Shown here: one piece after another, positions 2,764 to 48,277 of the stretch
Layout of the letters: each line of letters opens with the position of its first letter
Position numbering within the stretch: position 1 is the first letter of the stretch
Assembly: GCA_016198185.1 (NCBI GenBank)
Contig: JACQJD010000080.1
Span: forward strand, 1 to 56,183
DNA: 56,183 nt
Origin: Deltaproteobacteria bacterium
GTDB lineage: Bacteria > Bdellovibrionota > JACOXK01 > 2-02-FULL-40-11
Reading direction: 5' to 3'
The notes under the pieces: model-generated
Databases searched by the model: none
The model's input: the letters and a program-made list of their open reading frames with translations, nothing else
What the model was told of the DNA's origin: nothing
Position numbers and translations under genes: made by a program

Positions 2764-2780
2764 TGCAAAGGTCGTGCCAA
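2764..2780 (-). promoter_or_regulatory. sigma54 promoter
   Basis: Minus strand reads TTGGCACGACCTTTGCA, a perfect TGGCACG-N4-TTGCA, about 55 nt upstream of the ATG at 2709. Confidence 0.85.
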
Positions 2781-2951: not shown

Positions 2952-3192
2952 TTCCCAGCACATCACGCTAAGCTCTTGTATTTTCGAGAGAAACCAAAAC
3001 AACAGGAAGAAACTTTATAAAAAAACAACACGCGTTGTAAAAAAGTTCGACGATCTTTAAATAATAAAAAAAGAAATATTAAAATCTCATTAAATTTTAA
3101 TGTGTGAGCTCTTAAGCAAACATTTAACAGCTTGTGTTTGCCTTTAAGATCCACCGTAAAGAATTATTTTTTTGAACAAACAACCTTCACTA

Positions 3193-23280: not shown

Positions 23281-23395
23281 TTTTAAATGATTTACAAAGC
23301 TGAGTTTGGCAGCTTGTGATTTCTCTGTGGCTTGAAATGCAATGCCGCCACAGAGAAATCACAAGCTGCCCGACTGCGCTTTGTAAATATTAAAA
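23281..23395. repeat. long hairpin, family B (may also act as terminator between convergent genes)
   Basis: 24-bp perfect inverted repeat 23308-23331/23347-23370, loop TTGAAATGCAATGCC, outer arms ATTTACAAAGC/GCTTTGTAAAT. Confidence 0.9.
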
Positions 23396-23398
23396 CAG

Positions 23399-23653
23399 TT
23401 AGTGTTGATGTTCAGCTGGCGTTTCTGTTCCTTCAGCTTGACCTTTAGGCTCAGCAGCTAATTTTCCGCCTTCTTTAGATGCTGTTGCGGCACTTTTACT
23501 CTCATTAAAGCGAGTCTCACAGCCGCTTTTTACTTTGCCCTTTTGTTCTTCAACACTGACACTTCTTTTTTTGGTGCTTTTTTCAACTTTGGCATACGCT
23601 GTCGTAGCTCCCAAAAAAACAATCAGCATTAGAAACATTCCTAGTTTTTTCAT
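23399..23653 (-). CDS. small secreted disordered protein, positional equivalent of Bdellovibrio Hit (Bd0108)
   Basis: AGGAGG RBS; Sec signal ending AYA; mature part K/E/S/A/G-rich with one Cys; directly downstream of the RHS gene of the Tad operon. Confidence 0.8.
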   Translation of the reverse strand: MKKLGMFLMLIVFLGATTAYAKVEKSTKKRSVSVEEQKGKVKSGCETRFNESKSAATASKEGGKLAAEPKGQAEGTETPAEHQH

Positions 23654-23705
23654 ACCTTCCTCCTTATGAACTCACACCCATCGGCGTGGTGCTATTTAAT
23701 TATAC

Positions 23706-23722
23706 TGCAATGGCCATACCAA
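23706..23722 (-). promoter_or_regulatory. sigma54 promoter
   Basis: Minus strand TTGGTATG-GCCA-TTGCA with correct spacing, about 53 nt upstream of the ATG at 23653. Confidence 0.7.
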
Positions 23723-23848
23723 AAATAGCTCGCGCTTAAAAAAATTATGTTCATTTGTAATTTCAAGTAGATAGAACTCATTCTCATCTGTTTTTAATCT
23801 TGAAAATACCTTAAAATACAGACTAATTTTTGATCAACTGTTTAAGGT

Positions 23849-25516
23849 TTAGATATTTAAATCAATCCCTGCTGGTCTAATAATATCTATCACCGTTTCA
23901 AAGGCTTGGGCCACCGCAGCCGCAATGTTTCGGCCAGAAGGACTATCCATGCCAAGCATTTCGCCCTTAGCATTATAACTCACCACCAGGCTTCCCACCC
24001 CAACTTGGGTAATGCGTGTGGGCAATCCAAATTCATTGTATTCAAATAGAAACTTTCTGCCATCTTGATCCACAATGGAACGTGTTTGACCTCTTTTATA
24101 ATAATCTACTTGAAGCGAAATTTTCAGAGTCTTATTTCTCGCAAAAACCATATTTCCATTTTTATACTTGTATTCGGTCACATCCACTTTTTTGGTTTTT
24201 GCCTCCGTTTGGGTAACTTTAGACACTTTTTGACTGCTCTTGTCATACTCCACTTCTACTTTTTTACCATTGGGAGAGGCTTTACTCTTTAAACTGCCAT
24301 CTTCATAATATTCAAAGCGAGTGATCTGGCCTTGGCGTTCGATGGAAAGGGGTTTTCCACAGCACTCGGAATTCACCGTTTCTATCCGAATGCCATCGAC
24401 AACGGTTACTGTTTTTCTGGCAAATTTAAAGCCATCTTTTCGACGGGCATATTCAAATTCATATTTTTTAACATTGATTTGGGGATTGTGTTTAGACCCT
24501 CGCTCTGTTGTCAGAGTGACCTCTAAAAACTTGTCTTCATTTCCTTTGTGATCATACCGCACCTTACGTTTCTCCTCTTTATTAGGGCCTTCATGATAGA
24601 TGACCCGATCTTTATCATCGTATTTCATGATTTCCTTTTGACCACCCGCAACATACTGAACTTCTATTAAGTGATGCTTCTTATAGGCATATTTAAATTC
24701 GAATCCATTTGAGTTTTTCGCATAAATTAAATCTTTGTCCGCACTGTATCGATATTCACACGGAGAACCTGCCGGCGGAATAATTTTAGAAACCAACCCC
24801 ATCGTATTGTACTCAAATGTAACGCGACGGCCGACCGCATCGGTCACCGACATCAGTTGCCCTTGAGGATTATATTTATAGAGAAGAAAATTTTTATTGA
24901 GATCTTCGACTTTTGTTAATTTTCCCTGAACATCATAATATTCCTTACTTCCGTCAGCATAGCTTCGAATCCAGACGATTTTGCCTTCGGTGTCTTTTAT
25001 TTTTTTAAGCACTTCTGGACCACGGGCTGTAGATGAAAGTTCTATATCGAACGGAATGTCACGAAGCAGTTTGTGCTCCCCGGCTAATTTGTGACGTAAA
25101 CTTTCATCGGTCAAAAGAGATTTTTTAAGTTTCTCAGACCGAGAAGCGGCGGGAAGCCTGTTCCAAAGATCATCCACAAATTGATCGACCGTTTGGGGTG
25201 TGAAATTTTTTGCCGTAAATATCGTTTTAAACCCTCCCCCAAAAGATGTAATTTCCACCGTTCCTTCAGGGGTGACTTTAAAATGTTGATCAAAATTTGT
25301 TCCCCATTTGTGACCAAACTTTCCAAAATAACCAGACATGGAATTAAAAGACCGCTCTAAAAGAAGCGCATATCCTTGACCTGGTATTCCAAAATCTTGA
25401 AATGCAAAGGTGATATTGCCATTCTGCGGAGTAATCTCCCCTTGCGAATAAGCATAACCCCCTGAAAACATTAATAAAAACAACACTGCCATGGTCTTAA
25501 AGGTCTTCATATCCAT
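23849..25516 (-). CDS. secreted RHS/YD-repeat protein (Bd0109-like)
   Basis: Signal peptide; RSFNS...FGHKW (DUF6531-like); many YD-type repeats (YYDVQGKL, YNPQGQL, YNEFGL); no DPxG core end or toxin tail. Confidence 0.88.
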   Translation of the reverse strand: MDMKTFKTMAVLFLLMFSGGYAYSQGEITPQNGNITFAFQDFGIPGQGYALLLERSFNSMSGYFGKFGHKWGTNFDQHFKVTPEGTVEITSFGGGFKTIFTAKNFTPQTVDQFVDDLWNRLPAASRSEKLKKSLLTDESLRHKLAGEHKLLRDIPFDIELSSTARGPEVLKKIKDTEGKIVWIRSYADGSKEYYDVQGKLTKVEDLNKNFLLYKYNPQGQLMSVTDAVGRRVTFEYNTMGLVSKIIPPAGSPCEYRYSADKDLIYAKNSNGFEFKYAYKKHHLIEVQYVAGGQKEIMKYDDKDRVIYHEGPNKEEKRKVRYDHKGNEDKFLEVTLTTERGSKHNPQINVKKYEFEYARRKDGFKFARKTVTVVDGIRIETVNSECCGKPLSIERQGQITRFEYYEDGSLKSKASPNGKKVEVEYDKSSQKVSKVTQTEAKTKKVDVTEYKYKNGNMVFARNKTLKISLQVDYYKRGQTRSIVDQDGRKFLFEYNEFGLPTRITQVGVGSLVVSYNAKGEMLGMDSPSGRNIAAAVAQAFETVIDIIRPAGIDLNI

Positions 25517-25525
25517 TCCCCCTTT

Positions 25526-26383
25526 TCATATTCTTATCGTCACAATTTTTTTAATCATGAGTCCACCTACCGTTAGCAAAACCAATCCGATCAAAATTAA
25601 AATGAGCCCCGGAAATGTGGTAAACAAAGGTTTCATATGCTCCGGATCAATGAGATACATGAAAGCTCCTAATCCAAAAGGGGCAAATATTAAAATCGTT
25701 CCTTGAAAGACACCTTGCATCGTGAGAGCAGAGATTTTGTTCTCCAATTTTAAGCGCTCCCGAATGGTATAAACAATAATATCAAAGGTCTCTGCCAAAT
25801 TTCCACCCGTTTCTCTTAAAACAACAACAGCGGTCACAAACATTTCAATATCTTCTGACGCCATCCGCTTGGCGAAGTTCAGGAATGCTTTTTCAATCGC
25901 AACACCCAAGCGATGCTCCGATAAAATAAGATTCATTTCTTGAGATAAGGGATTGGGCATTTCTTCCACCACCAATTGAACGGCTTGAACCAAGCTGAGC
26001 CCCGATCTTAACGCACTGGACATGAGCGTCAGACCATCAATCAATTGCAGATTCACCTTCATCCGACGTTTTTTGAGCAAGATACCAATGAAAGGGCGTG
26101 GGGCCTTAAAGCTGATAATAATGATGAGCAATGCGAAACTTAATCCCATAAACACATTTGGCCACCATAAAACAATAAACAGAAGTCCCAAAATAAATGG
26201 CGTCAGCATTAGGATTTTAAATGTTGTTTTTTGAGAAAGCGGAATAAACATTTGGTCCAATTTTGTGGAAATCCATTCTGCATTGCCAACCGTGTAACGC
26301 TCGATGGAGCCATAAAACACCAACGACACGGTAAAGGATAAGATCCCAATCAAAAGATAAGCTGCGATTAATGAAAGAGGCAT
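25526..26383 (-). CDS. tadB: Tad pilus platform protein TadB
   Basis: T2SSF domain: SSALRSGLSL.QA, ETGGNLAE; follows tadA. Confidence 0.93.
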   Translation of the reverse strand: MPLSLIAAYLLIGILSFTVSLVFYGSIERYTVGNAEWISTKLDQMFIPLSQKTTFKILMLTPFILGLLFIVLWWPNVFMGLSFALLIIIISFKAPRPFIGILLKKRRMKVNLQLIDGLTLMSSALRSGLSLVQAVQLVVEEMPNPLSQEMNLILSEHRLGVAIEKAFLNFAKRMASEDIEMFVTAVVVLRETGGNLAETFDIIVYTIRERLKLENKISALTMQGVFQGTILIFAPFGLGAFMYLIDPEHMKPLFTTFPGLILILIGLVLLTVGGLMIKKIVTIRI

Positions 26384-26385
26384 CG

Positions 26386-28242
26386 TTATTCTTCCTCGCC
26401 AAAATCACTTTTTCGTCGTTTTACCGTCCACCCTTGGGGCAGACGCAATCCTTTTTGTTCAATTTCCATAACAAAATGCGGGAGATGCTCGGTCTTGATA
26501 AAATCGCCATAAACGCGACCTTGGGCATCAATCCCTTTTTGCTTAAACACAACAATATCTTTAATTTGAATATGATCTCCCTCAATGCCCATCACTTCAC
26601 TGATATGTGTAATTCTACGAGATCCATCTGAAAAGCGCGCAATTTGAACAATTAAATTCACAGCCGATGCAATCTGTTCACGAATGGCTCGAGAAGGAAG
26701 ATCCATCCCCGCCATCATGACCAACGTTTCCAATCGCGAGAGACAATCTCTGGGGTTATTGGCATGCACCGTCGTTAAAGATCCATCGTGGCCTGTGTTC
26801 ATGGCTTGCAACATGTCTAACGCTGCGCCATCTCGACACTCTCCCACCACAATACGATCGGGGCGCATCCGAAGGGTATTTCTCACCAAATCTCGAATCG
26901 TAATGGCCCCTTTGCCTTCGATATTGGGCGGCCGACTTTCCAATCGACACACATGCGGCTGCGTTAAACGCAATTCAGCAGAATCTTCGACGGTAATAAT
27001 GCGATCAGAAGCAGGAATAAAAGAAGAAAGCACATTGAGCAGGGTTGTTTTTCCGGTGCCCGTCCCCCCCGAAACCACAATATTTTGACGTGATTCAGTT
27101 GCCGCTCTTAAAAAATCTGCGATTTCATCTGTTAAAGATCCAAATCGAATGAGATCTTGAATCGAAAAGGGTGTCTTTGAAAATTTACGAATGGTTAACA
27201 CAGGTCCGGTCAAAGAAAGCGGTGGAATAATGGCGTGCACCCGAGAGCCATCCGGAAGCCTGGCATCACAATAAGGCGTCTTTTCATCAATCCGTCTTCC
27301 CAAAGGCGCAACAATTCTTTCGATAATTCCCAAGAGCTGTTCATCACTTGTAAAATTGAGGGGCACCAATTGAATCTTTCCATTTTTTTCAATGTAGATC
27401 TGGTCTTTGCGATTAACCATAATTTCTGTGACGGCAGGATCTGCAAGCAACTTTTCCAAAGCCCCCAAACCCAGCGCTTCATCTAAAATATCTTGCACAA
27501 ATAACCTGGCAGCCGTGCGATCTGCGATTGCAATATTTTCACGTTGCATAATGGCTAAGATCGCTTGTTTGGTGCGTTGTCTTAAAAGAGCTATTTTTTT
27601 TGGGTCATTCCCAGTTTCGGTATCAAGCTTTTTAAGGTTTAATTCTTCAACCAATTGATCTAAAATTTTTCTTTTTAATTTAACTTGGGGATCTTTCCCA
27701 ACCACCTCCGGCTTTACCACACGAGGTTGAATGGAACTGTAGGTTGGGCCTTCCGTTCCTGTTGCCTGAAGAATTTCATTTTGAGCAATCTCTACAATGT
27801 GTTTGGACAACAAAACGTCTTTTAACTTCATCACATATTTGGCCGGTAAGCTTTGGGGGTAGCTGGCAATCAAGGTCACGTGTTCTTGCTCAGCTTGAGC
27901 CACCAAGGCATGCTGCGGGATTGCCCCTAAAATATTACATGCCAGTTGTGCCTTTATCCGATGGGGGTCCATTTTTTGTGCCACATCGTATTCATTAAAC
28001 ACCACAAAAATTCGGTCTCTGCGAATTTTAGAAGAAAGCTCGTCAATGAGCGTTCTCGTTTGGACCAAACTTTTTTCATCGGTCGGGGTTGTCACCAACA
28101 GTGCCGAGGCCAGTGGTAATTTCTGAATCTCTTCGCTGACTTGAACTGGAACACGTTCCAAATCAAATGCCGCTTGTAAATTTTTAGCCAACATCGTTTT
28201 CCCACTTTTGGCAATCCCTGCAATGACTAAAAGAGATTTCAT
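26386..28242 (-). CDS. tadA: Tad ATPase TadA/CpaF with N-terminal CpaE/MinD-like remnant
   Basis: GGTGTGKTT, EDSAEL, LRMRPDRIVVGECR, MNTGHDG; extra N-terminal region with AGIAKSGKT. Confidence 0.96.
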   Translation of the reverse strand: MKSLLVIAGIAKSGKTMLAKNLQAAFDLERVPVQVSEEIQKLPLASALLVTTPTDEKSLVQTRTLIDELSSKIRRDRIFVVFNEYDVAQKMDPHRIKAQLACNILGAIPQHALVAQAEQEHVTLIASYPQSLPAKYVMKLKDVLLSKHIVEIAQNEILQATGTEGPTYSSIQPRVVKPEVVGKDPQVKLKRKILDQLVEELNLKKLDTETGNDPKKIALLRQRTKQAILAIMQRENIAIADRTAARLFVQDILDEALGLGALEKLLADPAVTEIMVNRKDQIYIEKNGKIQLVPLNFTSDEQLLGIIERIVAPLGRRIDEKTPYCDARLPDGSRVHAIIPPLSLTGPVLTIRKFSKTPFSIQDLIRFGSLTDEIADFLRAATESRQNIVVSGGTGTGKTTLLNVLSSFIPASDRIITVEDSAELRLTQPHVCRLESRPPNIEGKGAITIRDLVRNTLRMRPDRIVVGECRDGAALDMLQAMNTGHDGSLTTVHANNPRDCLSRLETLVMMAGMDLPSRAIREQIASAVNLIVQIARFSDGSRRITHISEVMGIEGDHIQIKDIVVFKQKGIDAQGRVYGDFIKTEHLPHFVMEIEQKGLRLPQGWTVKRRKSDFGEEE

Positions 28243-29753
28243 TATTTCACCCTAAATTTTCGTTTTAAGTCTTTGGCGCCCTCGGAAGCCGTTTGTAAAA
28301 TCTCCGGGGTCACAAAAATCACAAATTGACTTTTATTGTTTTGAAAAGATTTCGAACGATACAGATTAAATAACAGATTTTCATTATTCGCTAAGCTCGA
28401 AGGAATGCGATTGTAATTCGATGCTAAATTATTTGAAACAATTCCACCAATAGCGGCACTTTCTCCGGAATTCACAATAAGAACCGTATTAATGTTATTG
28501 AGCGAAATAGAGGGTTGCCCACGCTCATTAAAATCAATGACGGCTTTTAATTTAAATGCAATGTTGAGCCTCACTTGGGTGGAGTCTTCGAGTGTGGTGG
28601 GGAGAATTTCCATGGTAAGTCCTACATCTTGAAACTCGGTTCCTTGCTGAGTCGCGCCACCAGAGGTTGAAAAAACAGTAATGGGGATTTGTGTTGCATT
28701 CTCCAGTTTCCCCGTCGAATTGTTTTGAACGACGAGTGTGCTCGACTCTAACACACGTGCATGTCCATGGGTTTTGGCTTTGTTTAATTTTGGGATTAAA
28801 CTTGAAACCGTTGCCGTTACCGTCGTTGCTAAATTTCCCTTTTTAAGTTCAATGGTTGATTCATCTTGAATGCCGGGAGACCAATTAAAAGCAAAATTCT
28901 TAGCATAGTTTTTACTGAGCTCCACATAATGGGTGGTAATCCGAACCAATTTTTCCGGCTGAGCTGCAGGCTTTGCTTTGACCACCAACAAATTTACAAC
29001 GACTGGCGGACCCCCACTGGGTTTTTCAATGACACCTTCTTTTTCTGCTTGGGTCACAAAAATATCTGGCACATAGGTCTTAGCGGTTTCAATGGCAAGC
29101 ACGGCATTTCGATTTTCATCGCCATCCGGCCCTCGTTCCACGGTCCCTTCCACCAAAAACTTTTGGTTCACGGCTCTGACCCGAACTTCTTTATGGCCCA
29201 TTTTGTGAATGTCTTCTTGCATTTTGTCTGCAATGATTTTTTGGGCCACAGGACTGAGTGTTGCAATCACCCCCAGTTCTTCCTTCGAGTATTGATTGGC
29301 GACGGTAATGATTCGATTGAGATGCGCAGGAAGCAAAATTTCACCATCAATTAACACTTTTTTCCCAATGATTTTAATTTTGACCCCTTCAACGTCTTTT
29401 AATAAATCTCTCAATTCTGCTGCTACTTTGGCCCGATCACTGACAATGACCGTAATGGTAATGACCACCCGGTTTCGCTTTTCAAGATCTTGAATCGTCA
29501 CAGAGGTATTCCCATTTTTCTTTGGAACCAGCGTAATTTGTTTTTGTTCGCGCAAAGCAATAAAGTTACAAACGCTGGGATTGCCCACAATAATGTTGCC
29601 AGGGGTAAAATCCAAATCAATGGTCTTGGTAACCCCTGCCGTTAGTGTCTCGATCATAGCTTTTACAGGAAGTTTTTCTTGAGAAAAACTCTGATGTGAC
29701 CATCCCAAGATGATCATCAAAATGAAAAATGGAACTCTAGACGTTGGTTTCAT
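28242..29753 (-). CDS. cpaC: Tad secretin CpaC/RcpA with BON-like domains
   Basis: Signal peptide; pilus-formation N-domain (IVGNPSV...GNTSVTI); secretin tail (GESAAIGG...FVIFVTPEI). Confidence 0.9.
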   Translation of the reverse strand: MKPTSRVPFFILMIILGWSHQSFSQEKLPVKAMIETLTAGVTKTIDLDFTPGNIIVGNPSVCNFIALREQKQITLVPKKNGNTSVTIQDLEKRNRVVITITVIVSDRAKVAAELRDLLKDVEGVKIKIIGKKVLIDGEILLPAHLNRIITVANQYSKEELGVIATLSPVAQKIIADKMQEDIHKMGHKEVRVRAVNQKFLVEGTVERGPDGDENRNAVLAIETAKTYVPDIFVTQAEKEGVIEKPSGGPPVVVNLLVVKAKPAAQPEKLVRITTHYVELSKNYAKNFAFNWSPGIQDESTIELKKGNLATTVTATVSSLIPKLNKAKTHGHARVLESSTLVVQNNSTGKLENATQIPITVFSTSGGATQQGTEFQDVGLTMEILPTTLEDSTQVRLNIAFKLKAVIDFNERGQPSISLNNINTVLIVNSGESAAIGGIVSNNLASNYNRIPSSLANNENLLFNLYRSKSFQNNKSQFVIFVTPEILQTASEGAKDLKRKFRVK

Positions 29754-29754
29754 C

Positions 29755-30606
29755 TTAATACACCGGTGTTACTTCCGTCCCCCGAAATTCTAGCCAACGC
29801 GGCTGACGTTGAATTTTAACACCCTCTTGTCCTTGCGAACTTCTGGGCCCCAAAATCTTTTCGGCCGTGGTCGTAAAGAGTGTTTCAATCGACCGGTCGT
29901 CTGAATTTCGAAGCGATAGGAAAATGCTTCCTTCGCCACTGGTCAGTAAAAAAACAATCCCTTGGGCTTCATCGGGCGAAAGCTCGAGTGTCGCATTGGT
30001 AAACCGAGTATCGGTTCTCAGATCTCGCTTTACTTCTTTTCCCGTAATGGGATCTTGAAGTGTTTCGGTGGGAACAGAAGCCACCACATACCGTCCGGTT
30101 GCCAACACCAAAATATCTTGAAGCACGGTTTTGACTTCACGTTTTTCACGATCCCCCGCACCATAATCAATCGATGATAAAACATCCACACGATCGCCAG
30201 GGCGAATGAGTCTTGCCACACCATGAATATCGGTTACCGGTACCGTCATCGCTCGTTTTCCTTTGCTCACGCGCGTCGATAACTTTCCTTGAGTTTCTTC
30301 AAATAAAAGTTTGTTTTGGAGCAGTTGTTCCCCTTTTTTAATGGGCACGGTGGTAATCAGGCCCACCACATCTTTGATTTCTGAAAAGGTTCCTGGCTGA
30401 ACATAGTTTTGAGGAACCGAATCCACTCTAACCATGGTTTCATCCAAGGTCGTAAGCGCATTGATGTCTTGATTGGCCACCACAATTTTTTTGGGTGTTG
30501 CCAGCTGTAAGAGCGACGACTTCTGTTGATTGACAAATGACCAAATGAGCGCAATCGCCAAAATGGCCATTACAACTGAAATTAGAATCGCACGTGGATT
30601 ACTCAT
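29755..30606 (-). CDS. cpaB: Flp pilus assembly protein CpaB/RcpC
   Basis: N-terminal TM; SAF domain; GKRAMTVPV...IRPGDRVDV; LSLRN. Confidence 0.95.
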   Translation of the reverse strand: MSNPRAILISVVMAILAIALIWSFVNQQKSSLLQLATPKKIVVANQDINALTTLDETMVRVDSVPQNYVQPGTFSEIKDVVGLITTVPIKKGEQLLQNKLLFEETQGKLSTRVSKGKRAMTVPVTDIHGVARLIRPGDRVDVLSSIDYGAGDREKREVKTVLQDILVLATGRYVVASVPTETLQDPITGKEVKRDLRTDTRFTNATLELSPDEAQGIVFLLTSGEGSIFLSLRNSDDRSIETLFTTTAEKILGPRSSQGQEGVKIQRQPRWLEFRGTEVTPVY

Positions 30607-30618
30607 GATTTTCCCCCT

Positions 30619-30957
30619 TTAATTGCATGTGACCGTCCGACAAATGCCGATGATCGTCTCAATCGGCCTTTCATCTTCGGCATCCCCTGCATTGAGAAAT
30701 GGAATGCCCGATGTGCGAACCCGAGGTGATGTTCCCAAGGCTCGCTGTTTATTCCCCAAAGAAGGCATATTGACGTTGTGATCGAGTGTTTGTGTTAAAA
30801 ACCGATCCCGAACATTTTCTTGTGTGGTAATGGCGGCCTGAATACACTCAAAAACATATAAATTAAAAAGAATGAGAAAAATAAAAAAGGGCACCAAAAT
30901 AATAAATTCAATCATGGCCTGTCCTTTATTCGTCGGTATCACTTTTTTCTTATTCAT
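30619..30957 (-). CDS. TadE-like pseudopilin
   Basis: KG|QAMIEF prepilin site plus hydrophobic helix; start reassigned to the ATG at 30957. Confidence 0.8.
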   Translation of the reverse strand: MNKKKVIPTNKGQAMIEFIILVPFFIFLILFNLYVFECIQAAITTQENVRDRFLTQTLDHNVNMPSLGNKQRALGTSPRVRTSGIPFLNAGDAEDERPIETIIGICRTVTCN

Positions 30958-31408
30958 TGTCCAACACCCCTTCTGATTGACTTCGAACTTCCGCGGGTCC
31001 CGGCTCACGGGTGAATGGGGAGGCAACCGTCAATGTTTGTAAGGGATTTCCAAGCGTCCCCAATAAAGGAATGTAACTGAGCACCTGATACGTTAATTCA
31101 ATGCGTTCTCCCGCAGCATCTCGAATGACGTGTTGTCCTGGAATCGTCAGCGGCGATGCCAAAAATCCCAACCGATTGTTTTGGGGGGAACCCACAAGCT
31201 CTGACAAATATAGAGAACTATTTCCCGAAACAGACTCTGACCTTGCTGTCATAAAACCTGCATACCGCATGACATGAGAAGCAACGTACGTCAGGGACAA
31301 CTGAACATGAGCCAAAATCAAAAATAAAAGCAGGACAAAAATGAACAAGAACTCTGTTAAGGATTGTCCTTTTTTATTTTTAAGATATGGTTGACACAAC
31401 ACGTTCAT
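30950..31408 (-). CDS. TadE-like pseudopilin
   Basis: KG|QSLTEF prepilin site, TM helix, YAGFMTAR (AAR-like motif). Confidence 0.85.
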   Translation of the reverse strand: MNVLCQPYLKNKKGQSLTEFLFIFVLLLFLILAHVQLSLTYVASHVMRYAGFMTARSESVSGNSSLYLSELVGSPQNNRLGFLASPLTIPGQHVIRDAAGERIELTYQVLSYIPLLGTLGNPLQTLTVASPFTREPGPAEVRSQSEGVLDNE

Positions 31409-31414
31409 TTTTTG

Positions 31415-31588
31415 TTACCGAAACTCGCGCCCCGTGTTCAGTTGACGTTCGATGACATCCGCTTTCAGACGCGGGGCTGCCTGTTGAAAAATATCTACAA
31501 AAAAAAGACTGAGTCGCCACGCGATCATCACCACAAACGTCACAAGCAACATATACTCAACGATGGTCTGACCGCTGTGCGCTTTCAT
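31415..31588 (-). CDS. Flp-like minor pilin
   Basis: SG|QTIVEY Flp motif; start reassigned to the ATG at 31588. Confidence 0.8.
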   Translation of the reverse strand: MKAHSGQTIVEYMLLVTFVVMIAWRLSLFFVDIFQQAAPRLKADVIERQLNTGREFR

Positions 31589-31601
31589 GGATAAACGTGG
31601 A

Positions 31602-31784
31602 TTAGCCACCGCCCCCCATGGAACTAATTGCATTTCGAATTTTGTCCGTCACTTGCCCCACCAATCCTTGAAATTGAGGCTGAAACAATTTGAACAAAAT
31701 CATGACAATCCCCACCACAAATACAATCATGAGAATGTATTCCAGTGTATTTTGTCCTTTATGATTTCGAAGTAACTGTCGCAT
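31602..31784 (-). CDS. flp: Flp pilin
   Basis: 60 aa; KG|QNTLEY plus hydrophobic helix; strong AAGGAGG RBS; first gene of the operon. Confidence 0.9.
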   Translation of the reverse strand: MRQLLRNHKGQNTLEYILMIVFVVGIVMILFKLFQPQFQGLVGQVTDKIRNAISSMGGGG

Positions 31785-34555: not shown

Positions 34556-35047
34556 TTATGGCGAAAGATGAATCGTCATCCCTTGTTGAAAAAGGGTGAG
34601 CGCATTTTGAAAAGAAACACCATGAGAGTCCGAAGTCTGGTTTTTACGAACAATCCACCCGGAACCCATGGGGGTTTGGATTTGAGTTCTCACATAAAAT
34701 GCTTTTAAAATATCTACCTGCTCTTTTGTTTCGAAATCCCATACCATCCCTTTCCATTCTGATGAAGAATGCTTTACCGCATGATTAAAAAAACAACCGA
34801 TGTCATCAAAAAAAATGGTTTGGATATTTCCGTAACGATCGGCCGATTGAACCGCAACTGAAAATCGCAAATCATTCACAATCATCCCACACTGCATGCA
34901 ACTATCCATGCCAAGCCGTGGCAGTTTAAATTGAGCACCCTTCCATGCCCAAACATAAATCCATAAGATATAAATCAATAAAAAAAGAAACCCTGCCCCT
35001 GCTAAAATATAGGGAACTTTTTTATTCTTGAGGACAACTTTACCCAT
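34556..35047 (-). CDS. nosL: copper chaperone NosL
   Basis: CMQCGM, FDDIGC, TPMGSG motifs; N-terminal TM anchor. Confidence 0.9.
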   Translation of the reverse strand: MGKVVLKNKKVPYILAGAGFLFLLIYILWIYVWAWKGAQFKLPRLGMDSCMQCGMIVNDLRFSVAVQSADRYGNIQTIFFDDIGCFFNHAVKHSSSEWKGMVWDFETKEQVDILKAFYVRTQIQTPMGSGWIVRKNQTSDSHGVSFQNALTLFQQGMTIHLSP

Positions 35048-35050
35048 CCA

Positions 35051-35866
35051 TTACCATTCTTCTTGTTGTGTAAAAATCCAACAGCCTACCAAGCTAAGGA
35101 CCAGCGTCATCAAACTGAGCCAACCGATTAAATACAAAGGTAAACTTTGACCGATCATGCGATCCAGATACATGCCCGCCGCCCCCAATACTTCTAAGTC
35201 GGTCGCCAACAATCGAATGACGAGAATTTTAAAAACCTCAACCGGATTAAATAAACTCAAAGCCACAATAGCCTCACTTCTGAGTCGCAACAGATAAGCC
35301 GTCCCCATGAGACCCAAATCTCCAATCACCGTCAAAAACAACCACAAAAAAATAGCCGCCCCAGTCGCATGAGCTCTGTTATTTGAAAAAACCGAAATCA
35401 TCATTCCCGTCGCCATACACATTACCGTAAAGAGAAGGGCCAATCCCCACAAAACCAGAAAACTTCTTGCCATGTGAACACCCCAAAACCCAATCACCCC
35501 ACTGGATATGGCAAACCCCAGAGAAAGAGAGGTGGCCAATGCTAAAAAGGATCCCAAAAAACGACCTGCAAAATAATGAACTTTGGTCAGAGGATGACTG
35601 AGAAGATACACCAACACCCCTTCTTCTCGATCTCCCGAAATCAATTGCGCACCCAAAGCAAATCCCATGAGCGGAATAAAAAGCATGAGCACATTGACCA
35701 ACATGGCCGAGAGTTTGTTAAACTGAGAAAAGGTTTCTAAATCTGAACTGCCAATAAATGAAAGTAAAAAAGTTAAAAAGGCAAATCCCAAACTAAAACT
35801 TAAGAGCCAACGATTTCGAATGGCCTCTTTGTAAGACAAAATGGCAACCAACCACACTTCATGCAT
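35051..35866 (-). CDS. nosY: ABC permease NosY
   Basis: KEAIRNRW, DREEG.L.YLLSHP, NPVEVF; start reassigned to the ATG at 35866. Confidence 0.9.
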   Translation of the reverse strand: MHEVWLVAILSYKEAIRNRWLLSFSLGFAFLTFLLSFIGSSDLETFSQFNKLSAMLVNVLMLFIPLMGFALGAQLISGDREEGVLVYLLSHPLTKVHYFAGRFLGSFLALATSLSLGFAISSGVIGFWGVHMARSFLVLWGLALLFTVMCMATGMMISVFSNNRAHATGAAIFLWLFLTVIGDLGLMGTAYLLRLRSEAIVALSLFNPVEVFKILVIRLLATDLEVLGAAGMYLDRMIGQSLPLYLIGWLSLMTLVLSLVGCWIFTQQEEW

Positions 35867-36518
35867 AAAAGGGTTCCTTGAGTGAAATGGATTCCACACT
35901 CGGTGCAACCAACCTACCATCTTGAATCTGAATCAAATGATCAGATACCCATTGCACCTCTTCCAAACGATGACTTGAAAGCAAAACCGTTTTCTTTCCT
36001 CGCCATCCTTTAATGATTGAAAGAATCTCTCGCGTGGCCCAAGCGTCCAAGTTGGCTGTCGGCTCATCCAAGAGCACAATCGAAGGATCGGTCATTAAAG
36101 AAAGGGCGATGGAGAGCTTTTGGCGCATCCCTCCCGAAAGCATATGAATTTTTTTGGACACATGCGCCGCTAAACCAAATTCCTCTAAAACAGTATAGGC
36201 CTGTTTTAAATTTACATTTCGCAATCGAGCAAAAAAATGGACTGCTTCCTGAACACGCATTTCAGCCCACAGAGGTAAGTACTGAGGAATATAGCCCATG
36301 GTCTTTTTTATTTCCTGTGCATGATCCTTGAGATTGAGTCCATGAACCTCAATGCTGCCTTCGTAATCCAAAATTCCTAAAATACATTTCAAAAGTGTTG
36401 TTTTACCAGAACCATTGGCCCCAAGAATGCCAACCACTTGTTTGTCGAAAGTTACCGTAATATCTTTTAAAACTTCGTGCGGCCCATAAGACTTATATAA
36501 ATGTGATATTTCAATCAT
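35859..36518 (-). CDS. nosF: ABC ATPase NosF
   Basis: GANGSGKT, LSGGMRQ, LLDEPT; between nosD and nosY; start reassigned to the ATG at 36518. Confidence 0.9.
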   Translation of the reverse strand: MIEISHLYKSYGPHEVLKDITVTFDKQVVGILGANGSGKTTLLKCILGILDYEGSIEVHGLNLKDHAQEIKKTMGYIPQYLPLWAEMRVQEAVHFFARLRNVNLKQAYTVLEEFGLAAHVSKKIHMLSGGMRQKLSIALSLMTDPSIVLLDEPTANLDAWATREILSIIKGWRGKKTVLLSSHRLEEVQWVSDHLIQIQDGRLVAPSVESISLKEPFYA

Positions 36519-37843
36519 AAATTCATAACGCGATTTAATCCCCATGAAATGAATAGAAAAAAAATAGCCACCCAAAAAATGCTATAGGAACTTGATTGCC
36601 TTTTGATCGAAGTCCAAGGATGCATGCTGGGTGAGGGATCTTGGGCTTTGGAATCTGGTTTGAGCCATGGAATGGCACGGCTCGCAAATTCAAGCGCCAT
36701 CATCGCCGGACCAAATTTAAATAGTTTAAATCCTTCATATCGATCGGTCAGGTCATCGGCCAAGTGAGACAAACGATAGGGGATAGCCCCAACGCCCTGA
36801 CCCTGTATATCGATACCCGTATAATCACTCCAATAATTTAATTCCCACTGTGCTTCAATTCTTTCAGCATGGAGCACGCCCAATGGTTGCCAATTATCGA
36901 TGAAATCATTCTGACGATAATTCGCTCCCGTACTTCTTCCGATGAAAGATACACCCACATCATTGAAAACAATTCGGTTACGCTCAATGAACGCAGGTCG
37001 AATATCCTCTGAAAGAGCACCCATTGGAGAATTATCAAAATAAATGCCCACACGATTGCGAAACAATTCATTGTGATTCATTTTAAACTCATTCGAGTCT
37101 TTCAACGCGATCCCAAAACCACTTGGCCCACGATTATTTAAAACCGTATTTCCGAGAATGCTTAACTTGTGACTGTACATGGCATAAATGCCAACAGAAT
37201 TATTTTCGATGATATTCTCCTGGGCTGAGGATTCATCTGAATACATAAAATGAATTCCATATCGACTGCTCTTCATTTGATTCTGATTGAGAGTGGCGTG
37301 TGGAGAATACCAGACAATGACATCTCTGCCTCTAAAAAATTCATTGCGAACCAATTGTAAAGAAGAACTATACCAAGCCTTGAGAAGATCCCCTCGCTGC
37401 GCCAATGCCAAATCGTAACCAGAAATTTTACAATCTTCAATCTGACTGAAAGGACTATTGAGAAGTTCTATGCCAAAAAGACAATTTTCCACCTTGCTGT
37501 TTCGCAGTTCAAAATGAGCACCGTCTTCTACTTTAATACAACTATCCTCAGCCCCTAAAGTGACACCCGAATTTCGAATGGTGATTCCTGAAATATGCAC
37601 CTGCGGAGCTCGTACTTCCAGAACAGTTCCCCGCAGCTTCCCATCTAAAATCACATCATTCTTTGCAATCAGTGTTAAAGGTTTTTGAATTAAAAAATTT
37701 CCAACGTAAGTGCCGGAAGGAATGAGAACCGTTTCACCCGCTTTGGCATGGTTAATGAGCTCCTGGAAAACAGCTGGTGTCTTACTCTCAACCTCAAAGG
37801 ATAAAAAAATTAAAAGAAGCCCACCGAAACAAACACCTCTCAT
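36515..37843 (-). CDS. nosD: N2O reductase maturation protein NosD
   Basis: CASH beta-helix; RYGIHFMYS, NYWSDYTG.D motifs. Confidence 0.95.
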   Translation of the reverse strand: MRGVCFGGLLLIFLSFEVESKTPAVFQELINHAKAGETVLIPSGTYVGNFLIQKPLTLIAKNDVILDGKLRGTVLEVRAPQVHISGITIRNSGVTLGAEDSCIKVEDGAHFELRNSKVENCLFGIELLNSPFSQIEDCKISGYDLALAQRGDLLKAWYSSSLQLVRNEFFRGRDVIVWYSPHATLNQNQMKSSRYGIHFMYSDESSAQENIIENNSVGIYAMYSHKLSILGNTVLNNRGPSGFGIALKDSNEFKMNHNELFRNRVGIYFDNSPMGALSEDIRPAFIERNRIVFNDVGVSFIGRSTGANYRQNDFIDNWQPLGVLHAERIEAQWELNYWSDYTGIDIQGQGVGAIPYRLSHLADDLTDRYEGFKLFKFGPAMMALEFASRAIPWLKPDSKAQDPSPSMHPWTSIKRQSSSYSIFWVAIFFLFISWGLNRVMNL

Positions 37844-38427
37844 GTGGAAGCCTGTGTCAGAAGCTTCTTTTTGATGTTAATGGCCAGCATGTAAATGCCT
37901 GTCGCAAGAAATCCCAACCAAAATCCCACTCCAAACATAGCTTGCGTATGAAATTGACCAATTTTTCCAGCCCCCAACAACCGAGGCATAAACGGTTTAA
38001 TATGCACCGGCGCTTCTGGACTTAAATAATGCCCAAAATAATACATCCAAAAAGTAAAATCACCGATAAATCCAATCAAAAAAAGAATGGGTGGTAAATA
38101 AAAGATAAAATAAATTTTTTTCGAAAAACTTAAAACAATTAAACCTCCTAAAATTAAAAGCCCAACAGCCAGCGCAGCAACTTTCCTTTCCCATTGAGCT
38201 GCATTTTGTAATTTCTCCATCCCAATATAATGATTGAGTAAGTTGACTTCATCGACATCCCCTTCCACATGATCCAAATAAACTTTCATGTGAAGGCCCA
38301 TTGGATATTGCGGAGCTTTGAGATGCATCACCCAATATGGAAAGAAATAGGATCCCGCCAAGATCAATGAAGCCAGAAAGAGCAGAGCATAAAAGGATGG
38401 ATAAGATTTCAACATTTGAAACGTCAT
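37840..38427 (-). CDS. nosB: clade II nos membrane protein NosB
   Basis: APQYPMGL, NLLNHYIGM, YYFGH.L motifs; four TMs; directly after nosZ. Confidence 0.85.
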   Translation of the reverse strand: MTFQMLKSYPSFYALLFLASLILAGSYFFPYWVMHLKAPQYPMGLHMKVYLDHVEGDVDEVNLLNHYIGMEKLQNAAQWERKVAALAVGLLILGGLIVLSFSKKIYFIFYLPPILFLIGFIGDFTFWMYYFGHYLSPEAPVHIKPFMPRLLGAGKIGQFHTQAMFGVGFWLGFLATGIYMLAINIKKKLLTQAST

Positions 38428-38430
38428 CCC

Positions 38431-40374
38431 TTATTGAACCACCAAATAGCCTGTCATTTCCAAATGAAGCGCCGAACAAAATTCTGTACAATAATATGGG
38501 AAAACACCGGATTGATCGGCTTTAAACTCAACCGTTTCCACTTTTCCGGGTTCCAAAGAAACATTGATATTGTACCGACTGATGGCAAAGCCATGTGTTG
38601 CATCCAGAGCGCGCTCAATACTACTTAAGTGTATTCTCACCAAATCTCCTTTTTTAACGTTAATAAGGTCTGGCGTCAGATGACTTCGAATGGTGGTCAT
38701 ATAAACATCAACCGTATTCCCCTTACGAACAATGCGTTCTTTACCGGCCAAAGTTGCAACGGGACTGGGTTTCATTGTTTCAGCACTCATCCCCAGTGGA
38801 TAAACACTCCACGGTTTTAAACGCTCTGCTTTTACAATTTGAGCGTAATGAGGCTCTGCGTTCGGAATGGGCATATCATATAAAACCTGCATTTTTTCTG
38901 AACCGGTTGTAGAAACAAGCTGAAAGTTTTGAGGCAACAACGGACCCACATTCGGAAAACGATCAATGGCCCATTTGTTTAATGAAACACAATAGCCTTC
39001 ACCTGGCTCGGCTGTATCCCCCTCAACACAAGAAAGGTGCCCGATATTATAATGCACCGAAACTTTATCCAAAAGTTTCCATGCTGCGTTGCCCTTGTGA
39101 TAAGGCTCTCCCAATGACCACTTTGCAATGGCTGAGTCTAAAAATAGACTGGTATAGGCATAGCCTTGTTTATCAAATTGCGTATGCAGCGGCCCTAACC
39201 CCACTTCAATCTGAGCCGCCAAAACAGAATCAAATTTTAAAATGGGAACACCATATTCATCTTTCCCTTGAACCAAGTTCTGAGCTATCGCGTTCTTTAA
39301 TTTATTGAATTCAAATACAGTCACATGAGGGTCTAATTTTCCAGATACAACAATATAATTGCCATCTGGCGAAACATCCACACCATGCGGACTTTTAGGT
39401 TCATGGATAAAATAAAGTAATTTTTCTTGGATGGCTTGTTTAAGTGTAATGAGCTTCATCCCTGCTGTTTTTTGAGTCCCTGCGGACTTGGCCACTTTTT
39501 CTGCTTTTTTCCAATCAATCACATGTAAAAAATCCATATCATTGCGTGAAACGGCCATTTCCAATTGAGGTTTCTGATTCATATTATCTGGAGAGGCTAA
39601 CTCCGTGTTGATCGAATTGATAAACAGATACCCATCACTGACTTTTTTTCCAAGATCCACAATATCTTGCCAATACGGAGGCAGCTCTATTGAAAAACTT
39701 TGTGATAGATTGATTTTTCCTTGTGCGCGATCAAATTTCCAAAAGGTCACAACCCCACGATATTTTTTTTTATAGTCCGTCATCGGGGCATAGCGTGCCC
39801 CCAGTGGCACATTATATTGTGAAGTTTCAATAATATATTCCGTGTTGGGGGTCACAAATGTCCCGCCATGATCATTGACAAATAAAGGATTTTGAAGAAT
39901 TTGCTTGGTCGAAAAATCACGTAGGTCAATGACCGCAACACGCGCATTGGCCTTATCATTCACAAATAAAAATTGACCGTCATAGACACCATTGGTTTCA
40001 GAGAGTGCAGGGTGGTGAAGATCTCCCCACCTGAGCGCTTTACCGCCACCATCTAATATACGTTTGGAATCCAGAGAACCCGTTCCCCAGCCTTGCCAGG
40101 AGTCTGGTGAAAAAACAGGAATCGTTTTAATCAGACGCATAGAAGGAAGACCAATCACCAGAACACTGCCGGCATGTCCCCCCGATGCAAACATGAGGTA
40201 TGGGTCATGTTTCCCAGAGGGCGTATAGGTCATCAGCGCTGCGCGCATATCCGAAGCGGTCAACCCTCTTTTTTTAGCAATGTCCTCTAAAACAGAGGCC
40301 TGACTTTGTGTGGCAATGCATAAAAGCACCAGATATCCACTTAAAATAAATCTGATTCTACTGAGGATCATCAT
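38431..40374 (-). CDS. nosZ: Sec-dependent (clade II) nitrous-oxide reductase
   Basis: SGGH, DLHH, SPHG, GPLHTQF, GH, EPH CuZ ligands; CuA YCTEFCSALHLEM; Sec-type leader without twin-Arg consensus. Confidence 0.97.
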   Translation of the reverse strand: MMILSRIRFILSGYLVLLCIATQSQASVLEDIAKKRGLTASDMRAALMTYTPSGKHDPYLMFASGGHAGSVLVIGLPSMRLIKTIPVFSPDSWQGWGTGSLDSKRILDGGGKALRWGDLHHPALSETNGVYDGQFLFVNDKANARVAVIDLRDFSTKQILQNPLFVNDHGGTFVTPNTEYIIETSQYNVPLGARYAPMTDYKKKYRGVVTFWKFDRAQGKINLSQSFSIELPPYWQDIVDLGKKVSDGYLFINSINTELASPDNMNQKPQLEMAVSRNDMDFLHVIDWKKAEKVAKSAGTQKTAGMKLITLKQAIQEKLLYFIHEPKSPHGVDVSPDGNYIVVSGKLDPHVTVFEFNKLKNAIAQNLVQGKDEYGVPILKFDSVLAAQIEVGLGPLHTQFDKQGYAYTSLFLDSAIAKWSLGEPYHKGNAAWKLLDKVSVHYNIGHLSCVEGDTAEPGEGYCVSLNKWAIDRFPNVGPLLPQNFQLVSTTGSEKMQVLYDMPIPNAEPHYAQIVKAERLKPWSVYPLGMSAETMKPSPVATLAGKERIVRKGNTVDVYMTTIRSHLTPDLINVKKGDLVRIHLSSIERALDATHGFAISRYNINVSLEPGKVETVEFKADQSGVFPYYCTEFCSALHLEMTGYLVVQ

Positions 40375-41399: not shown

Positions 41400-41837
41400 A
41401 TGTTAACCTTAACCTTAAGCCAAACCAATGAATATGCCTTACGGGCAATGTCTTATTTGGCTCATGCCGGTGGAAAGATACCGCTCACGGCCACGAAAAT
41501 TTCACGTGAGACAAAGATTCCCCAACATTATTTATCAAAAATAATGAAACTCATGGTCAATGCGAAGTTGGTGCATTCTCAAAAAGGGCATCGAGGAGGA
41601 TTCGTACTTGCAAAACCACGAACGAAAATTCGTTTTTTCGATATCATTGTTGCCACGGGATATAATCCCAACCCCAATCGATGTGTTTTTGGATGGGCGA
41701 CTTGTAATCCCAAACTCCCTTGTATGCTGCATCACGCTTGGAGCGAGCTCAATACAACTTTTAAAACATGGGCTTTGGAAAAAACGTTGAATGACATTTA
41801 TCCAGAAAATAAAACAGCAAGACAGGTTAAGTCATAA
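41400..41837 (+). CDS. Rrf2-family Fe-S transcriptional regulator
   Basis: EYALRAM, YLSKI, S.KG..GGF.L wHTH; C-x6-C-x5-C-x2-H cluster motif. Confidence 0.93.
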   Translation: MLTLTLSQTNEYALRAMSYLAHAGGKIPLTATKISRETKIPQHYLSKIMKLMVNAKLVHSQKGHRGGFVLAKPRTKIRFFDIIVATGYNPNPNRCVFGWATCNPKLPCMLHHAWSELNTTFKTWALEKTLNDIYPENKTARQVKS

Positions 41838-42547
41838 GCATTTGTTTTTTGGGAAGCTGCCGTCACCAACGTTTTCGATAGAGTTTCAAACTTCTGCACG
41901 TTGTTCAAATGGTCGTGTATTTCTGTATCGCTTAAAGCATTGAGTACCCCTGAAGAAAGCAACAGGTAAATGTCTTTGACTTTGGGAACTTTGGTGTCAA
42001 TGCTTCGAATGCTTAAGGGATCGCTTTTACCCATAAATTGCAGCGGAATATTGGTATGTGCATGCGTGGGCTTTATTTTTTTATATTCTGCCAAAGAATC
42101 ATCTTGCGTCAGCTGAAAAAGATCTGACTTTCTATAAAGATAGGCTCTGCAATTCCCCACATTGGCAACGATAAAACGATCGGCCAAAGTCATAAGCAAA
42201 AGAACACTCGATCCCATATTTTCAAAGACATGATCATAGCGAGCACGTTCAACAATTTTGGTATTGGTTTTTAAAAGCAATAAACGCACATAATTTTCTT
42301 CTAAGGTTAAATTTTCTTGTTTTTCAAACGGCCACGTGGCCTGGGTTTCCATTGAAAAGGAGTGGGCAAATTGAGGAATGAGTGAACACGCCATTTGGCT
42401 CGCAAGTACCCCTCGGTCATGACCCCCCAATCCATCACTCACAACATAAATGCCGGTTTCAGAATCAATTCGAAACACATCTTCATTGATTCCTGTTACA
42501 CGATTTCCCAGAGAATACCCATGCGCAATGAAACGATTTTTATTCAT
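41798..42547 (-). CDS. PP2C-family Ser/Thr phosphatase, probably degenerate
   Basis: NED and DGLGG retained; NVGDSR reads NVGNCR, DHS reads DDS, SDG reads SSG. Confidence 0.85.
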   Translation of the reverse strand: MNKNRFIAHGYSLGNRVTGINEDVFRIDSETGIYVVSDGLGGHDRGVLASQMACSLIPQFAHSFSMETQATWPFEKQENLTLEENYVRLLLLKTNTKIVERARYDHVFENMGSSVLLLMTLADRFIVANVGNCRAYLYRKSDLFQLTQDDSLAEYKKIKPTHAHTNIPLQFMGKSDPLSIRSIDTKVPKVKDIYLLLSSGVLNALSDTEIHDHLNNVQKFETLSKTLVTAASQKTNAYDLTCLAVLFSG

Positions 42548-46980: not shown

Positions 46981-47338
46981 TTCGTAATTGGGTTGCGACT
47001 TTCAATTTCCAAAAATCGATGGTTCCGGCCGGCCATTCAATGGCAGATCGTGCTTTAAAATGAGGCCACGTCATACGATAGGGCTGTAACGCAGGATACA
47101 ACGCAACAATGATATTCTTGCTATCCATAAAGGCGACGTCAATCGGGTATTTCATAAAAAAGGTATCAATCATGAAACACCCCGGAGAAAGAATTAAAGC
47201 TTCCTGGGAACGCAAGGGAGGTTTTCCCAAAAGACCAAATATTCTCTCCCAAAGACTTTCGGTCCCTGTTGCTTGCGATGAAATGCACTGATCCCCGTAA
47301 AAAATGGAATAGCCTGTCTTACAAGAAACCGCCACCAA
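46961..47338 (-). CDS. DUF192-family protein
   Basis: ERIFGLLG, IDTFFMKYPIDVAFMD, EWPAG. Confidence 0.88.
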   Translation of the reverse strand: MVAVSCKTGYSIFYGDQCISSQATGTESLWERIFGLLGKPPLRSQEALILSPGCFMIDTFFMKYPIDVAFMDSKNIIVALYPALQPYRMTWPHFKARSAIEWPAGTIDFWKLKVATQLRIEEKHG

Positions 47339-48230: not shown

Positions 48231-48249
48231 ACGGATATCCTCATGTTCC

Positions 48250-48277
48250 CTATCGGCATAAAAGATCAATAAGATGA
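48250..48277 (-). promoter_or_regulatory. sigma28 (FliA)-like promoter of the tadC-FHA operon
   Basis: Minus strand TCATC-N15-GCCGATAG; near-consensus -10, weak -35. Confidence 0.55.

Follow-up and report, generated by a model that had tools for sequence, protein, structure and literature searches.

The closest described relative of the locus studied here is the hit locus of Bdellovibrio bacteriovorus strain HD100, whose product, Bd0108, is a 101-aa intrinsically disordered lifestyle-switch protein (PMC3818213, PMC4267844; these two papers, as well as PMC5430801, are cited throughout from excerpts). Its gene is separated from the preceding bd0109 by 16 nt, and the two are transcribed together (PMC3818213); nuclear magnetic resonance has located the contacts of Bd0108 with Bd0109 to residues 24-66, of which residues 32-40 are conserved (PMC4267844). 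Bd0109 is described as essential and as controlling the extrusion of pili, and mutation of bd0108 leads to host-independent growth. For these predators, bd0109-bd0113 have been listed as part of a syntenic set of attack-phase core genes (PMC5430801). The two small secreted neighbours of the Bd0109 homologue in Bacteriovorax marinus have been interpreted as the outcome of a tandem duplication of hit with later divergence (PMC3526173) and, in the excerpted PMC4267844, as proteins with no significant homology, and a 2025 preprint scored Bd0108 as absent in many Pseudobdellovibrionaceae (PMC11870529). Here we describe a locus in a contig of 56,183 nt (JACQJD010000080.1; this whole stretch is referred to as the window) from the genome of an uncultured Bdellovibrionota bacterium (1.77 Mb, 92% complete) that belongs to a class other than that of Bdellovibrio. 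The locus comprises a Tad/Flp pilus operon, a terminal gene for a secreted RHS/YD protein, and a gene for an 84-aa secreted protein (Table 1). Results of our sequence comparisons indicate that it is the orthologous hit locus, and we consider it on balance probable that it represents the hit module of this small-genome organism. The system would thus be a known one that occurs in a lineage new for it, and both its partner protein and its regulation would be variant.

The RHS protein of the window and Bd0109 are reciprocal best hits, with a single match in each direction (E of 8.1e-68 and 3.1e-68) and with 31-33% identity over the full length (BLASTP: 3e-72, 31%). They are similar in size (555 vs. 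550 aa), and both have a leader, the same conserved C-terminal helix, no toxin domain, and a gene located after tadB/C where the tad operon ends. Bd0109, also described as 'WapA-like' (PMC3818213), differs in coming from a different class of the phylum and in having Val-Phe in place of the vicinal Cys385-Cys386 of the window protein. In the HD100 locus used for the comparison (L021), 16 nt separate the gene for the 550-aa RHS protein from that for a 101-aa protein whose residues D24, C56, C59, and Q101 agree, together with the gene lengths, with the published Bd0108/Bd0109 (PMC3818213, PMC4267844), and two published primers for reverse transcription-PCR (RT-PCR) match this locus at 0 mismatches (PMC3818213). 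Metagenome homologues of the RHS protein are of 539-572 aa and 45-52% identical to it. A homologue is encoded by 37 of 41 relatives and by 387 of the 401 genomes sampled across the phylum (E<=1e-10), including 328 of the 336 high-quality ones, and the RHS gene belongs to the conserved core of the phylum, in a single copy. The orthology and the near-universal presence of this gene in the phylum place the window genome among the Bdellovibrionota and not in another lineage. The earlier note on this DNA, which had been made from the sequence alone, anticipated the orthology with Bd0109 correctly, and the same position at the end of the tad operon agrees with it. Its further suggestion that the lifestyle switch extends to other lineages is not supported as worded: the organism is of the same phylum as Bdellovibrio, Bacteriovorax neighbours of the gene are already in print (PMC3526173 and the excerpted PMC4267844), and a lifestyle switch is not inferable for an uncultured organism.

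As the genes for the pilins, TadE-like proteins, CpaB, the secretin, TadA, and TadB/C precede it on the same strand, the RHS gene forms the end of the Tad operon. Its product consists of an N-terminal hydrophobic leader, a DUF6531 domain (Pfam, 2e-8), a helical insert, an RHS sheet (Pfam RHS_repeat, 9.5e-19; NCBIfam YD_repeat_2x, 6.1e-15) with the vicinal Cys385-Cys386, and a conserved C-terminal helix (residues 529-550). Modelled alone, it folds with high confidence (predicted local distance difference test, pLDDT, of 91.9; predicted TM-score, pTM, of 0.87), and Foldseek matches the model to Rhs cores of type VI secretion systems (T6SS), teneurins, and Tc BC shells at E of 1e-22 to 1e-8, with TM-scores of 0.32-0.49 on the query, the RHS protein being about half as long as the matched proteins. 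A small open reading frame (ORF) behind RHS repeats may evoke an Rhs polymorphic toxin with its immunity protein. However, the motif DPxG is absent anywhere in the 555 aa, the self-cleavage motif DPxGL is found in 0 of 75 aligned RHS homologues, and an NCBIfam scan of the protein detected neither an RHS-associated core (TIGR03696-type) nor a toxin match. There is no toxin tail, since the protein stops right after the conserved C-terminal helix, and no cytoplasmic immunity-like ORF lies 3' of the RHS gene, where the encoded protein carries an export signal. The Rhs/Tc polymorphic-toxin shells (8qja, 7q97, 4igl) share with the RHS protein the RHS beta-sheet fold (Foldseek E of 1e-22 to 1e-11), but the window protein is about half their size and has no DPxGL autoprotease, toxin, or PAAR/VgrG context. 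With the locus being, moreover, a single-copy core constituent of the phylum, the toxin-immunity reading is extremely improbable, and the description of a toxin-less RHS/YD protein with a signal peptide whose gene closes the Tad operon, given already in the earlier note, is borne out by the ORF, the family matches, and the gene order.

The 84-aa protein encoded 195 nt behind the RHS gene starts with a leader (MKK...AYA), probably cleaved between AYA and the following K, which leaves a mature chain of 63 aa that is rich in Lys, Glu, and Ser and contains 23 charged residues, one aromatic residue, and one Cys. AlphaFold2 predicted no secondary structure past the leader (pLDDT of about 46-54, pTM of 0.20). 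The secretion signal, low complexity, and strong ribosome-binding site that had been read from this gene are all seen, and the disorder prediction turned out as the earlier note expected. A frame that is short and of low complexity, and whose 84-aa product retrieved nothing but itself in a word-based homologue search, might be suspected of not being a gene. Yet in all six loci of the window's family with room downstream the RHS gene is followed by one small gene, whose product has a leader and an invariant Gly that is followed 6-7 residues later by an invariant Cys. The Shine-Dalgarno (SD) sequence is kept as TAAGGAGG in five of these loci and as TAAGGGAG in L008. The conservation of the leader, Gly39, Cys45, the SD sequence, and the promoter discussed below, despite an overall identity of 16-32% between the small proteins of this family, is beyond chance. 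A search of 1.84 billion representatives with a HMMER profile built from the six mature chains retrieved 7 proteins, all of the E-x-(M/L)-T-G-x5-C design. Both sister-family loci contain a small gene whose product has the arrangement of leader, Gly, and Cys described for the window's family. We therefore regard it as very improbable that the 84-aa ORF is not a gene.

The arrangement extends across the phylum. We compared 100 loci around RHS homologues, selected partly among the best hits listed and partly in families with poor sampling, i.e., a set that is not random and that includes the window and near-identical genomes; 98 of them have an RHS ORF of >=500 aa, and 94 of the latter have >=400 nt downstream. 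An ORF of 45-140 aa whose N-terminus resembles a leader occurs on the same strand, no more than 1 kb behind the RHS gene, in 85 of these 94 loci, or in 83 once 13 overlapping or alternative-frame ORFs had been dropped by eye, and at least two such ORFs are present in 45 of the surveyed loci. A Cys occurs in the approximate mature part of 130 of the 135 small ORFs kept. The small gene is thus syntenic in relatives, both in the family and phylum-wide, as had been asked of it, and the survey points to the module of an RHS protein with a small secreted Cys-containing protein as a core feature of the whole phylum.

In the earlier note, the small gene was assigned a promoter of its own. Such a promoter is predicted, and its element is conserved in the six family loci, but it is of the sigma-54 -24/-12 type and not sigma-70-like. 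A sigma-70 scan of the 195-nt gap detected no site on the minus strand, and the alignment of the gaps of the six loci shows a conserved TGGYAY-N5-TTGCA, located 57-93 nt before each ATG, which we take to be the sigma-54 -24/-12 consensus. The sigma-54 pattern has 2 matches in the window vs. 0.28 expected, and the genome encodes rpoN (6.7e-63) and four to five strong Sigma54_activat proteins. Among the surveyed loci, TGGYAY-N6-TGCW is found 20-140 nt upstream of 53 of the 68 small genes whose start lies >135 nt past the RHS stop codon, and upstream of 0 of the 67 that start nearer to it. Of the 65 matches of this pattern in the first 80 loci (both strands, 685 kb), 45 fall in the upstream windows of such distant genes, which add up to 13.4 kb. 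This distribution (53/68 vs. 0/67) indicates that the small genes of hit loci are either RHS-coupled, like bd0108, or sigma-54-driven, like that of the window. A second conserved block, GATTAAAA-N4-ATGAGAA, lies 60-78 nt upstream of the -24 element in all six family loci and is a candidate activator site (upstream activating sequence, UAS). An upstream ORF of 30 codons that spans this block is out of frame in L008, and the block is therefore treated as DNA. A sigma-28-like GCCGAT noticed by eye is not conserved in the family alignment and was rejected. No link between sigma-54 and bd0108 or the hit locus was found in the literature searched, outside which subscription journals and supplements lay, and PMC3627812 names sigma54 in its reference list only; a sigma-54-gated variant partner is a mode of regulation found in no paper within that literature.

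The window contains one more sigma-54-type site, TGGCACGACCTTTGCA (2764-2779, minus strand), 55 nt upstream of an ORF (1264-2709, minus strand) for a protein of 481 aa with no Pfam match. Loosely similar, AT-rich matches to the GATTAAAA block occur near this site, at 2779-2797 and 3084-3102.

The closest regulatory counterpart of the window's small gene is found in the HD100 locus itself, next to bd0108. It is a second small gene, an ORF of 66 aa (L021:1784-1984, minus strand; genome bases 96483-96683) that encodes a leader and one Cys and is preceded by the SD sequence AAGGAG and, 75 nt upstream, by the sigma-54-type element TGGCACACGCGATGCA, with hairpin-plus-T-run terminators on both sides. 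A 'small non-coding RNA' (sRNA) has been reported at positions 96455-96716 of this genome as up-regulated in all bd0108 mutants (PMC3818213). The 66-aa ORF lies wholly within it, and the published RT-PCR primers fall inside the ORF (PMC3818213). The ORF is kept in related genomes, where the differences at the first, second, and third codon positions number 819, 647, and 1073, respectively (third > first > second), and 342 of the 1392 differing codons are synonymous; a 95% identical copy is annotated as a hypothetical protein in NCBI and as a lipoprotein in UniRef. On this coding evidence, the hit-locus sRNA of HD100 is probably an mRNA, which would encode another secreted protein of the locus.

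The 66-aa gene of HD100 as well as BMS0183/BMS0184 of Bacteriovorax marinus SJ have in common with the window's gene a separate location, a sigma-54-type element, an SD sequence, a leader, and a single Cys, although their products have no significant sequence similarity to the window's protein. They differ also in that the sigma-54-type gene is the second small gene in HD100 and in most Bacteriovoracia but the sole small gene in the window's class. The 195-nt gap, the sigma-54 promoter, and the one Cys make the regulation of the window's gene closer to that of this second, sigma-54-driven gene than to that of bd0108. The gene and its product show the traits of the sigma-54-driven class (the element, rpoN in the genome, a leader, a single, i.e., odd, Cys, and low complexity) and are placed in this class, since two features of Bd0108 are missing, namely the sequence similarity and, as predicted from the gap and the promoter, co-transcription.

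Does the small protein bind the RHS protein? A complex of RHS residues 25-555 (75-row alignment) and residues 22-84 of the small protein (6-row alignment) was predicted with a score of 0.62 (runs of 0.61, 0.62, and 0.66), vs. 0.00, 0.00, and 0.02 for three controls. In a calibration, 116 of 157 solved complexes attained this score, as did 2 of 215 mismatched pairs; these counts are only approximate guides here because custom alignments were supplied. The confident contacts of the small protein (residues 31-32, 34, and 37-41) coincide with its only conserved mature stretch, just before Cys45, for which itself the model has no confident contact. On the RHS side they involve residues 25, 38-41, 43, and 54 of the DUF6531 domain and residues 268-274, 288-293, and 311 of RHS hairpins. 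The pLDDT of the partner within the complex is 36-39, and across the runs it is at least 36, with a contact agreement between runs of at least 19%. The model supports binding of the small protein to the RHS protein via its N-terminal part. We know of no solved complex of a like kind.

Unfolded polypeptides are enclosed in the shells of Tc toxins and of T6SS toxins, which are the closest folds of the RHS protein. This, together with the disorder of the partner predicted by AlphaFold2 and with the encapsulation of Bd0108 hypothesised in the excerpted PMC4267844, may suggest that the small protein is a cargo or plug that is enclosed by the RHS shell and handed to the Tad machine for export to the surface or to prey. 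However, at 555 aa the RHS protein is shorter than the matched Rhs core chains of about 1000 residues, and the TM-scores on the query are those given above. The confident contacts are, moreover, at the N-terminal domain and a few hairpins and not in an interior, and the self-cleavage motif is absent. We consider the cargo function quite unlikely.

The two genes might also be mere neighbours, in which case the small one would encode an independent sigma-54-regulated exported peptide, such as a signal or an envelope factor, and the interface would be a false positive, like that of the two mismatched pairs that passed in the calibration. Its own promoter behind a 195-nt gap and the absence of similarity of its product to Bd0108 fit such independence. 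The position kept phylum-wide in 83 of 94 loci does not, nor do the predicted contact on the only conserved mature stretch and the tracking of the RHS Cys-Cys by the cysteine parity of the small protein in 80 of 84 loci, an association that is not statistically established (see below). On these grounds, mere neighbourhood appears unlikely.

The preferred reading, namely that of a hit module with a variant partner, has to be weighed against several observations that speak against it. The mature small protein has no significant similarity to Bd0108 or to five other hit-locus groups (hhalign P of 0.21-0.88; P of 0.68 in the case of the Bdellovibrionaceae group, which includes Bd0108), and its homology to Bd0108 is therefore unproven. 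The window's gene is separated from the RHS gene by 195 nt and has its own sigma-54 promoter, whereas bd0108 follows bd0109 after 16 nt and is co-transcribed with it, according to the excerpted source. The leader detector used in the survey is crude, finding leader-bearing ORFs in the sense orientation in 67 and in the antisense orientation in 33 of the first 74 loci, and the additional conserved features therefore carry the weight. The complex score is a model confidence obtained with custom alignments, and the fold of the partner is uncertain. Lastly, the affinity of Bd0108 for Bd0109 is weak (dissociation constant of 45 uM, about 3:1) and their complex is disordered or 'fuzzy' (PMC4267844, excerpt), with which a single defined interface sits oddly.

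Neither of two further attempts at a sequence link to other hit-locus proteins could be used. The hhalign scores for the six groups (5.0-8.5) lie in or near the range of those of shuffled sequences (3.3-11.1), and the scores above all 10 shuffles, obtained for three distant-gap groups and for the adjacent-gap group f10_A (8.1 vs. 7.8), were too weak to use. A Gly located 3-9 residues before the first Cys was counted in 64 of 96 sequences vs. 42 ± 4.7 in shuffles (maximum of 58 in 1000 shuffles), but the motif was chosen post hoc, the sequences are related, and 7 ORFs had been dropped by eye beforehand.

Like Bd0108, the protein of the window is small, Sec-exported, and, by prediction, disordered, is encoded 3' of the RHS gene, and has a mid-chain cysteine, and its N-terminal mature part is, according to the model, the binding part, as in Bd0108. 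It differs from Bd0108 in the lack of detectable sequence similarity, in having one Cys instead of CxxC, and in lacking an NPGEDPNEA-type motif. The proposal of a positional analogue that sequence searches would miss proved right, as neither the word-based and profile searches nor hhalign gave a match to Bd0108. That of a Bd0108-like pair stands in part: the predicted complex (0.62 vs. 0.02) and its N-terminal contacts are in line with it, but the spacing, the promoter, and the cysteine pattern are different.

The cysteines of the two proteins appear to vary together. The vicinal Cys385-Cys386 of the RHS protein is present in 48 of 75 aligned homologues, and the others, with Bd0109 as an example, have two non-Cys residues at this position. 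Among the 84 loci with both traits, 50 have an RHS Cys-Cys and an odd Cys count in the nearest small protein, and 30 have no Cys-Cys and an even count (80 concordant loci). The exceptions comprise three loci without Cys-Cys and one with it, the latter due to a miscounted lipobox Cys. On a FastTree tree of 98 RHS proteins, these data reduce to between 4 (starred) and 6 independent contrasts, of which about 2.5 agree with the association and 0.1 oppose it, and a sign test gave no significance (median p of 0.5); with so few contrasts the association is not statistically established. It suggests the hypothesis that the lone Cys of the partner exchanges thiol and disulfide with the vicinal pair.

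Under the reading of the locus as a hit module, the following mechanism may be proposed. A Tad/Flp pilus operon that ends in a Sec-exported, toxin-less RHS/YD protein is followed by the gene for a Sec-exported chain of 63 aa, which is predicted to be disordered. In the periplasm, this chain is predicted by the model to dock via residues S31-V41, centred on the invariant G39 and just before the invariant C45, onto a surface formed by DUF6531 residues 38-43 and 54 and by the RHS hairpins 268-311. By analogy with Bdellovibrio, the complex would tune the extrusion or retraction of the pilus at the cell wall, and hence signalling after prey contact. The partner gene, unlike bd0108, would be transcribed on its own from the predicted sigma-54 promoter, so that an enhancer-binding activator, of which four to five are encoded, could set the dose of the partner apart from that of the pilus operon. 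Possibly, though this is speculative, Cys45 exchanges with the vicinal Cys385-Cys386 to form a reversible covalent tether.

A wider reading joins these points, and we put it forward as doubtful but worth keeping in view. In it, the hit module of the whole phylum would consist of the RHS protein and one to three small secreted, Cys-bearing disordered proteins, with every non-coupled small gene gated by sigma-54 and an enhancer-binding activator, and the HD100 sRNA that rises in all bd0108 mutants would be an mRNA that encodes a second protein like Bd0108. If the RHS protein has kept Cys-Cys, as in the window, the lone Cys of the partner would form a reversible mixed disulfide with it, making the pilus checkpoint a signal- and redox-gated covalent switch, and Bdellovibrio proper would have lost the Cys-Cys and closed the Cys of the partner into CxxC.

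Table 1. Features of the hit locus in the window, in the order of transcription
Feature	Positions	Strand	Description and evidence
Flp-type pilin gene 1	31602..31784	-	60 aa, contains KGQNTLEYILMIV; ORF and G/xxxxEY motif read, which we take to be Flp-like; no Pfam match at 1e-5
Flp-type pilin gene 2	31415..31633	-	contains SGQTIVEYMLLV; start probably an internal Met; ORF read; no Pfam match
TadE-like pseudopilin gene	30950..31408	-	Pfam TadE 5.1e-4, under the curated cut-off
Second TadE/TadF-like gene	30619..31026	-	ORF only, start probably an internal Met; no family match in Pfam/NCBIfam scans
cpaB/rcpC	29755..30606	-	Pfam RcpC 6.2e-23; NCBIfam pilus_cpaB 1.3e-45
Tad secretin gene (rcpA/cpaC type)	28242..29753	-	Pfam Secretin 1.2e-24, T2SS-T3SS_pil_N 3.3e-8
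TadA/CpaF ATPase gene	26386..28242	-	Pfam T2SSE 9.7e-67; NCBIfam TadA-family 4.8e-100
tadB/C (T2SSF) inner-membrane platform gene	25526..26383	-	Pfam T2SSF 3.8e-18
Bd0109-orthologous secreted RHS/YD gene	23849..25516	-	555 aa; Pfam, NCBIfam, structure, reciprocal best hits
Candidate activator (UAS) block GATTAAAA-N4-ATGAGAA	23781..23799	-	conserved columns in 6 family loci
Predicted sigma-54 -24/-12 element TGGTATGGCCATTGCA	23706..23721	-	68 nt upstream of the small-gene ATG; alignment of 6/6 family loci
Shine-Dalgarno AAGGAGG	23659..23665	-	5 nt before the small-gene ATG
Small secreted protein gene	23399..23653	-	84 aa; leader 1-21, mature 22-84, invariant G39 and C45
Palindrome, 42-nt arms	23290..23388	.	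3' of the small gene; fold -66.9 kcal/mol, z -11.4

The N-terminal extension of the TadA/CpaF ATPase has a weak ParA/CbiA likeness (Pfam CbiA, 5.1e-5, under the cut-off), and xseA lies downstream of the hit-locus genes in the window. The palindrome behind the small gene is likely a transcript end. Its core has 21 further partial matches in the same genome, which makes it a dispersed repeat resembling repetitive extragenic palindromic (REP) elements and thus not specific to the hit locus; Rfam gave only sub-threshold, microRNA-like matches to it. In L004, a different long palindrome lies between the RHS gene and the small gene. Elsewhere in the window (41798-48269, minus strand), a second T2SSF (TadB/C-like) gene occurs beside genes for three FHA-domain proteins and a PP2C phosphatase, a group that may be a phospho-regulated part of the same pilus machine. 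A nitrous-oxide reductase cluster (34556-40374, minus strand) comprises genes for a NosZ-like protein of 647 aa, NosD, an ABC ATPase, and an ABC-2 permease, as well as small accessory ORFs.

The link that the hit locus makes between pilus activity and the growth decision of the predator has been a standing question since the 1990s, and Bd0108 has so far been treated as Bdellovibrio-specific. The presence of the tad/hit module in a groundwater genome of 1.77 Mb is consistent with a predatory or epibiotic life of this organism, although it does not demonstrate it. Control of a part of the module by sigma-54 and an activator, as predicted here, would name a concrete regulator to look for.

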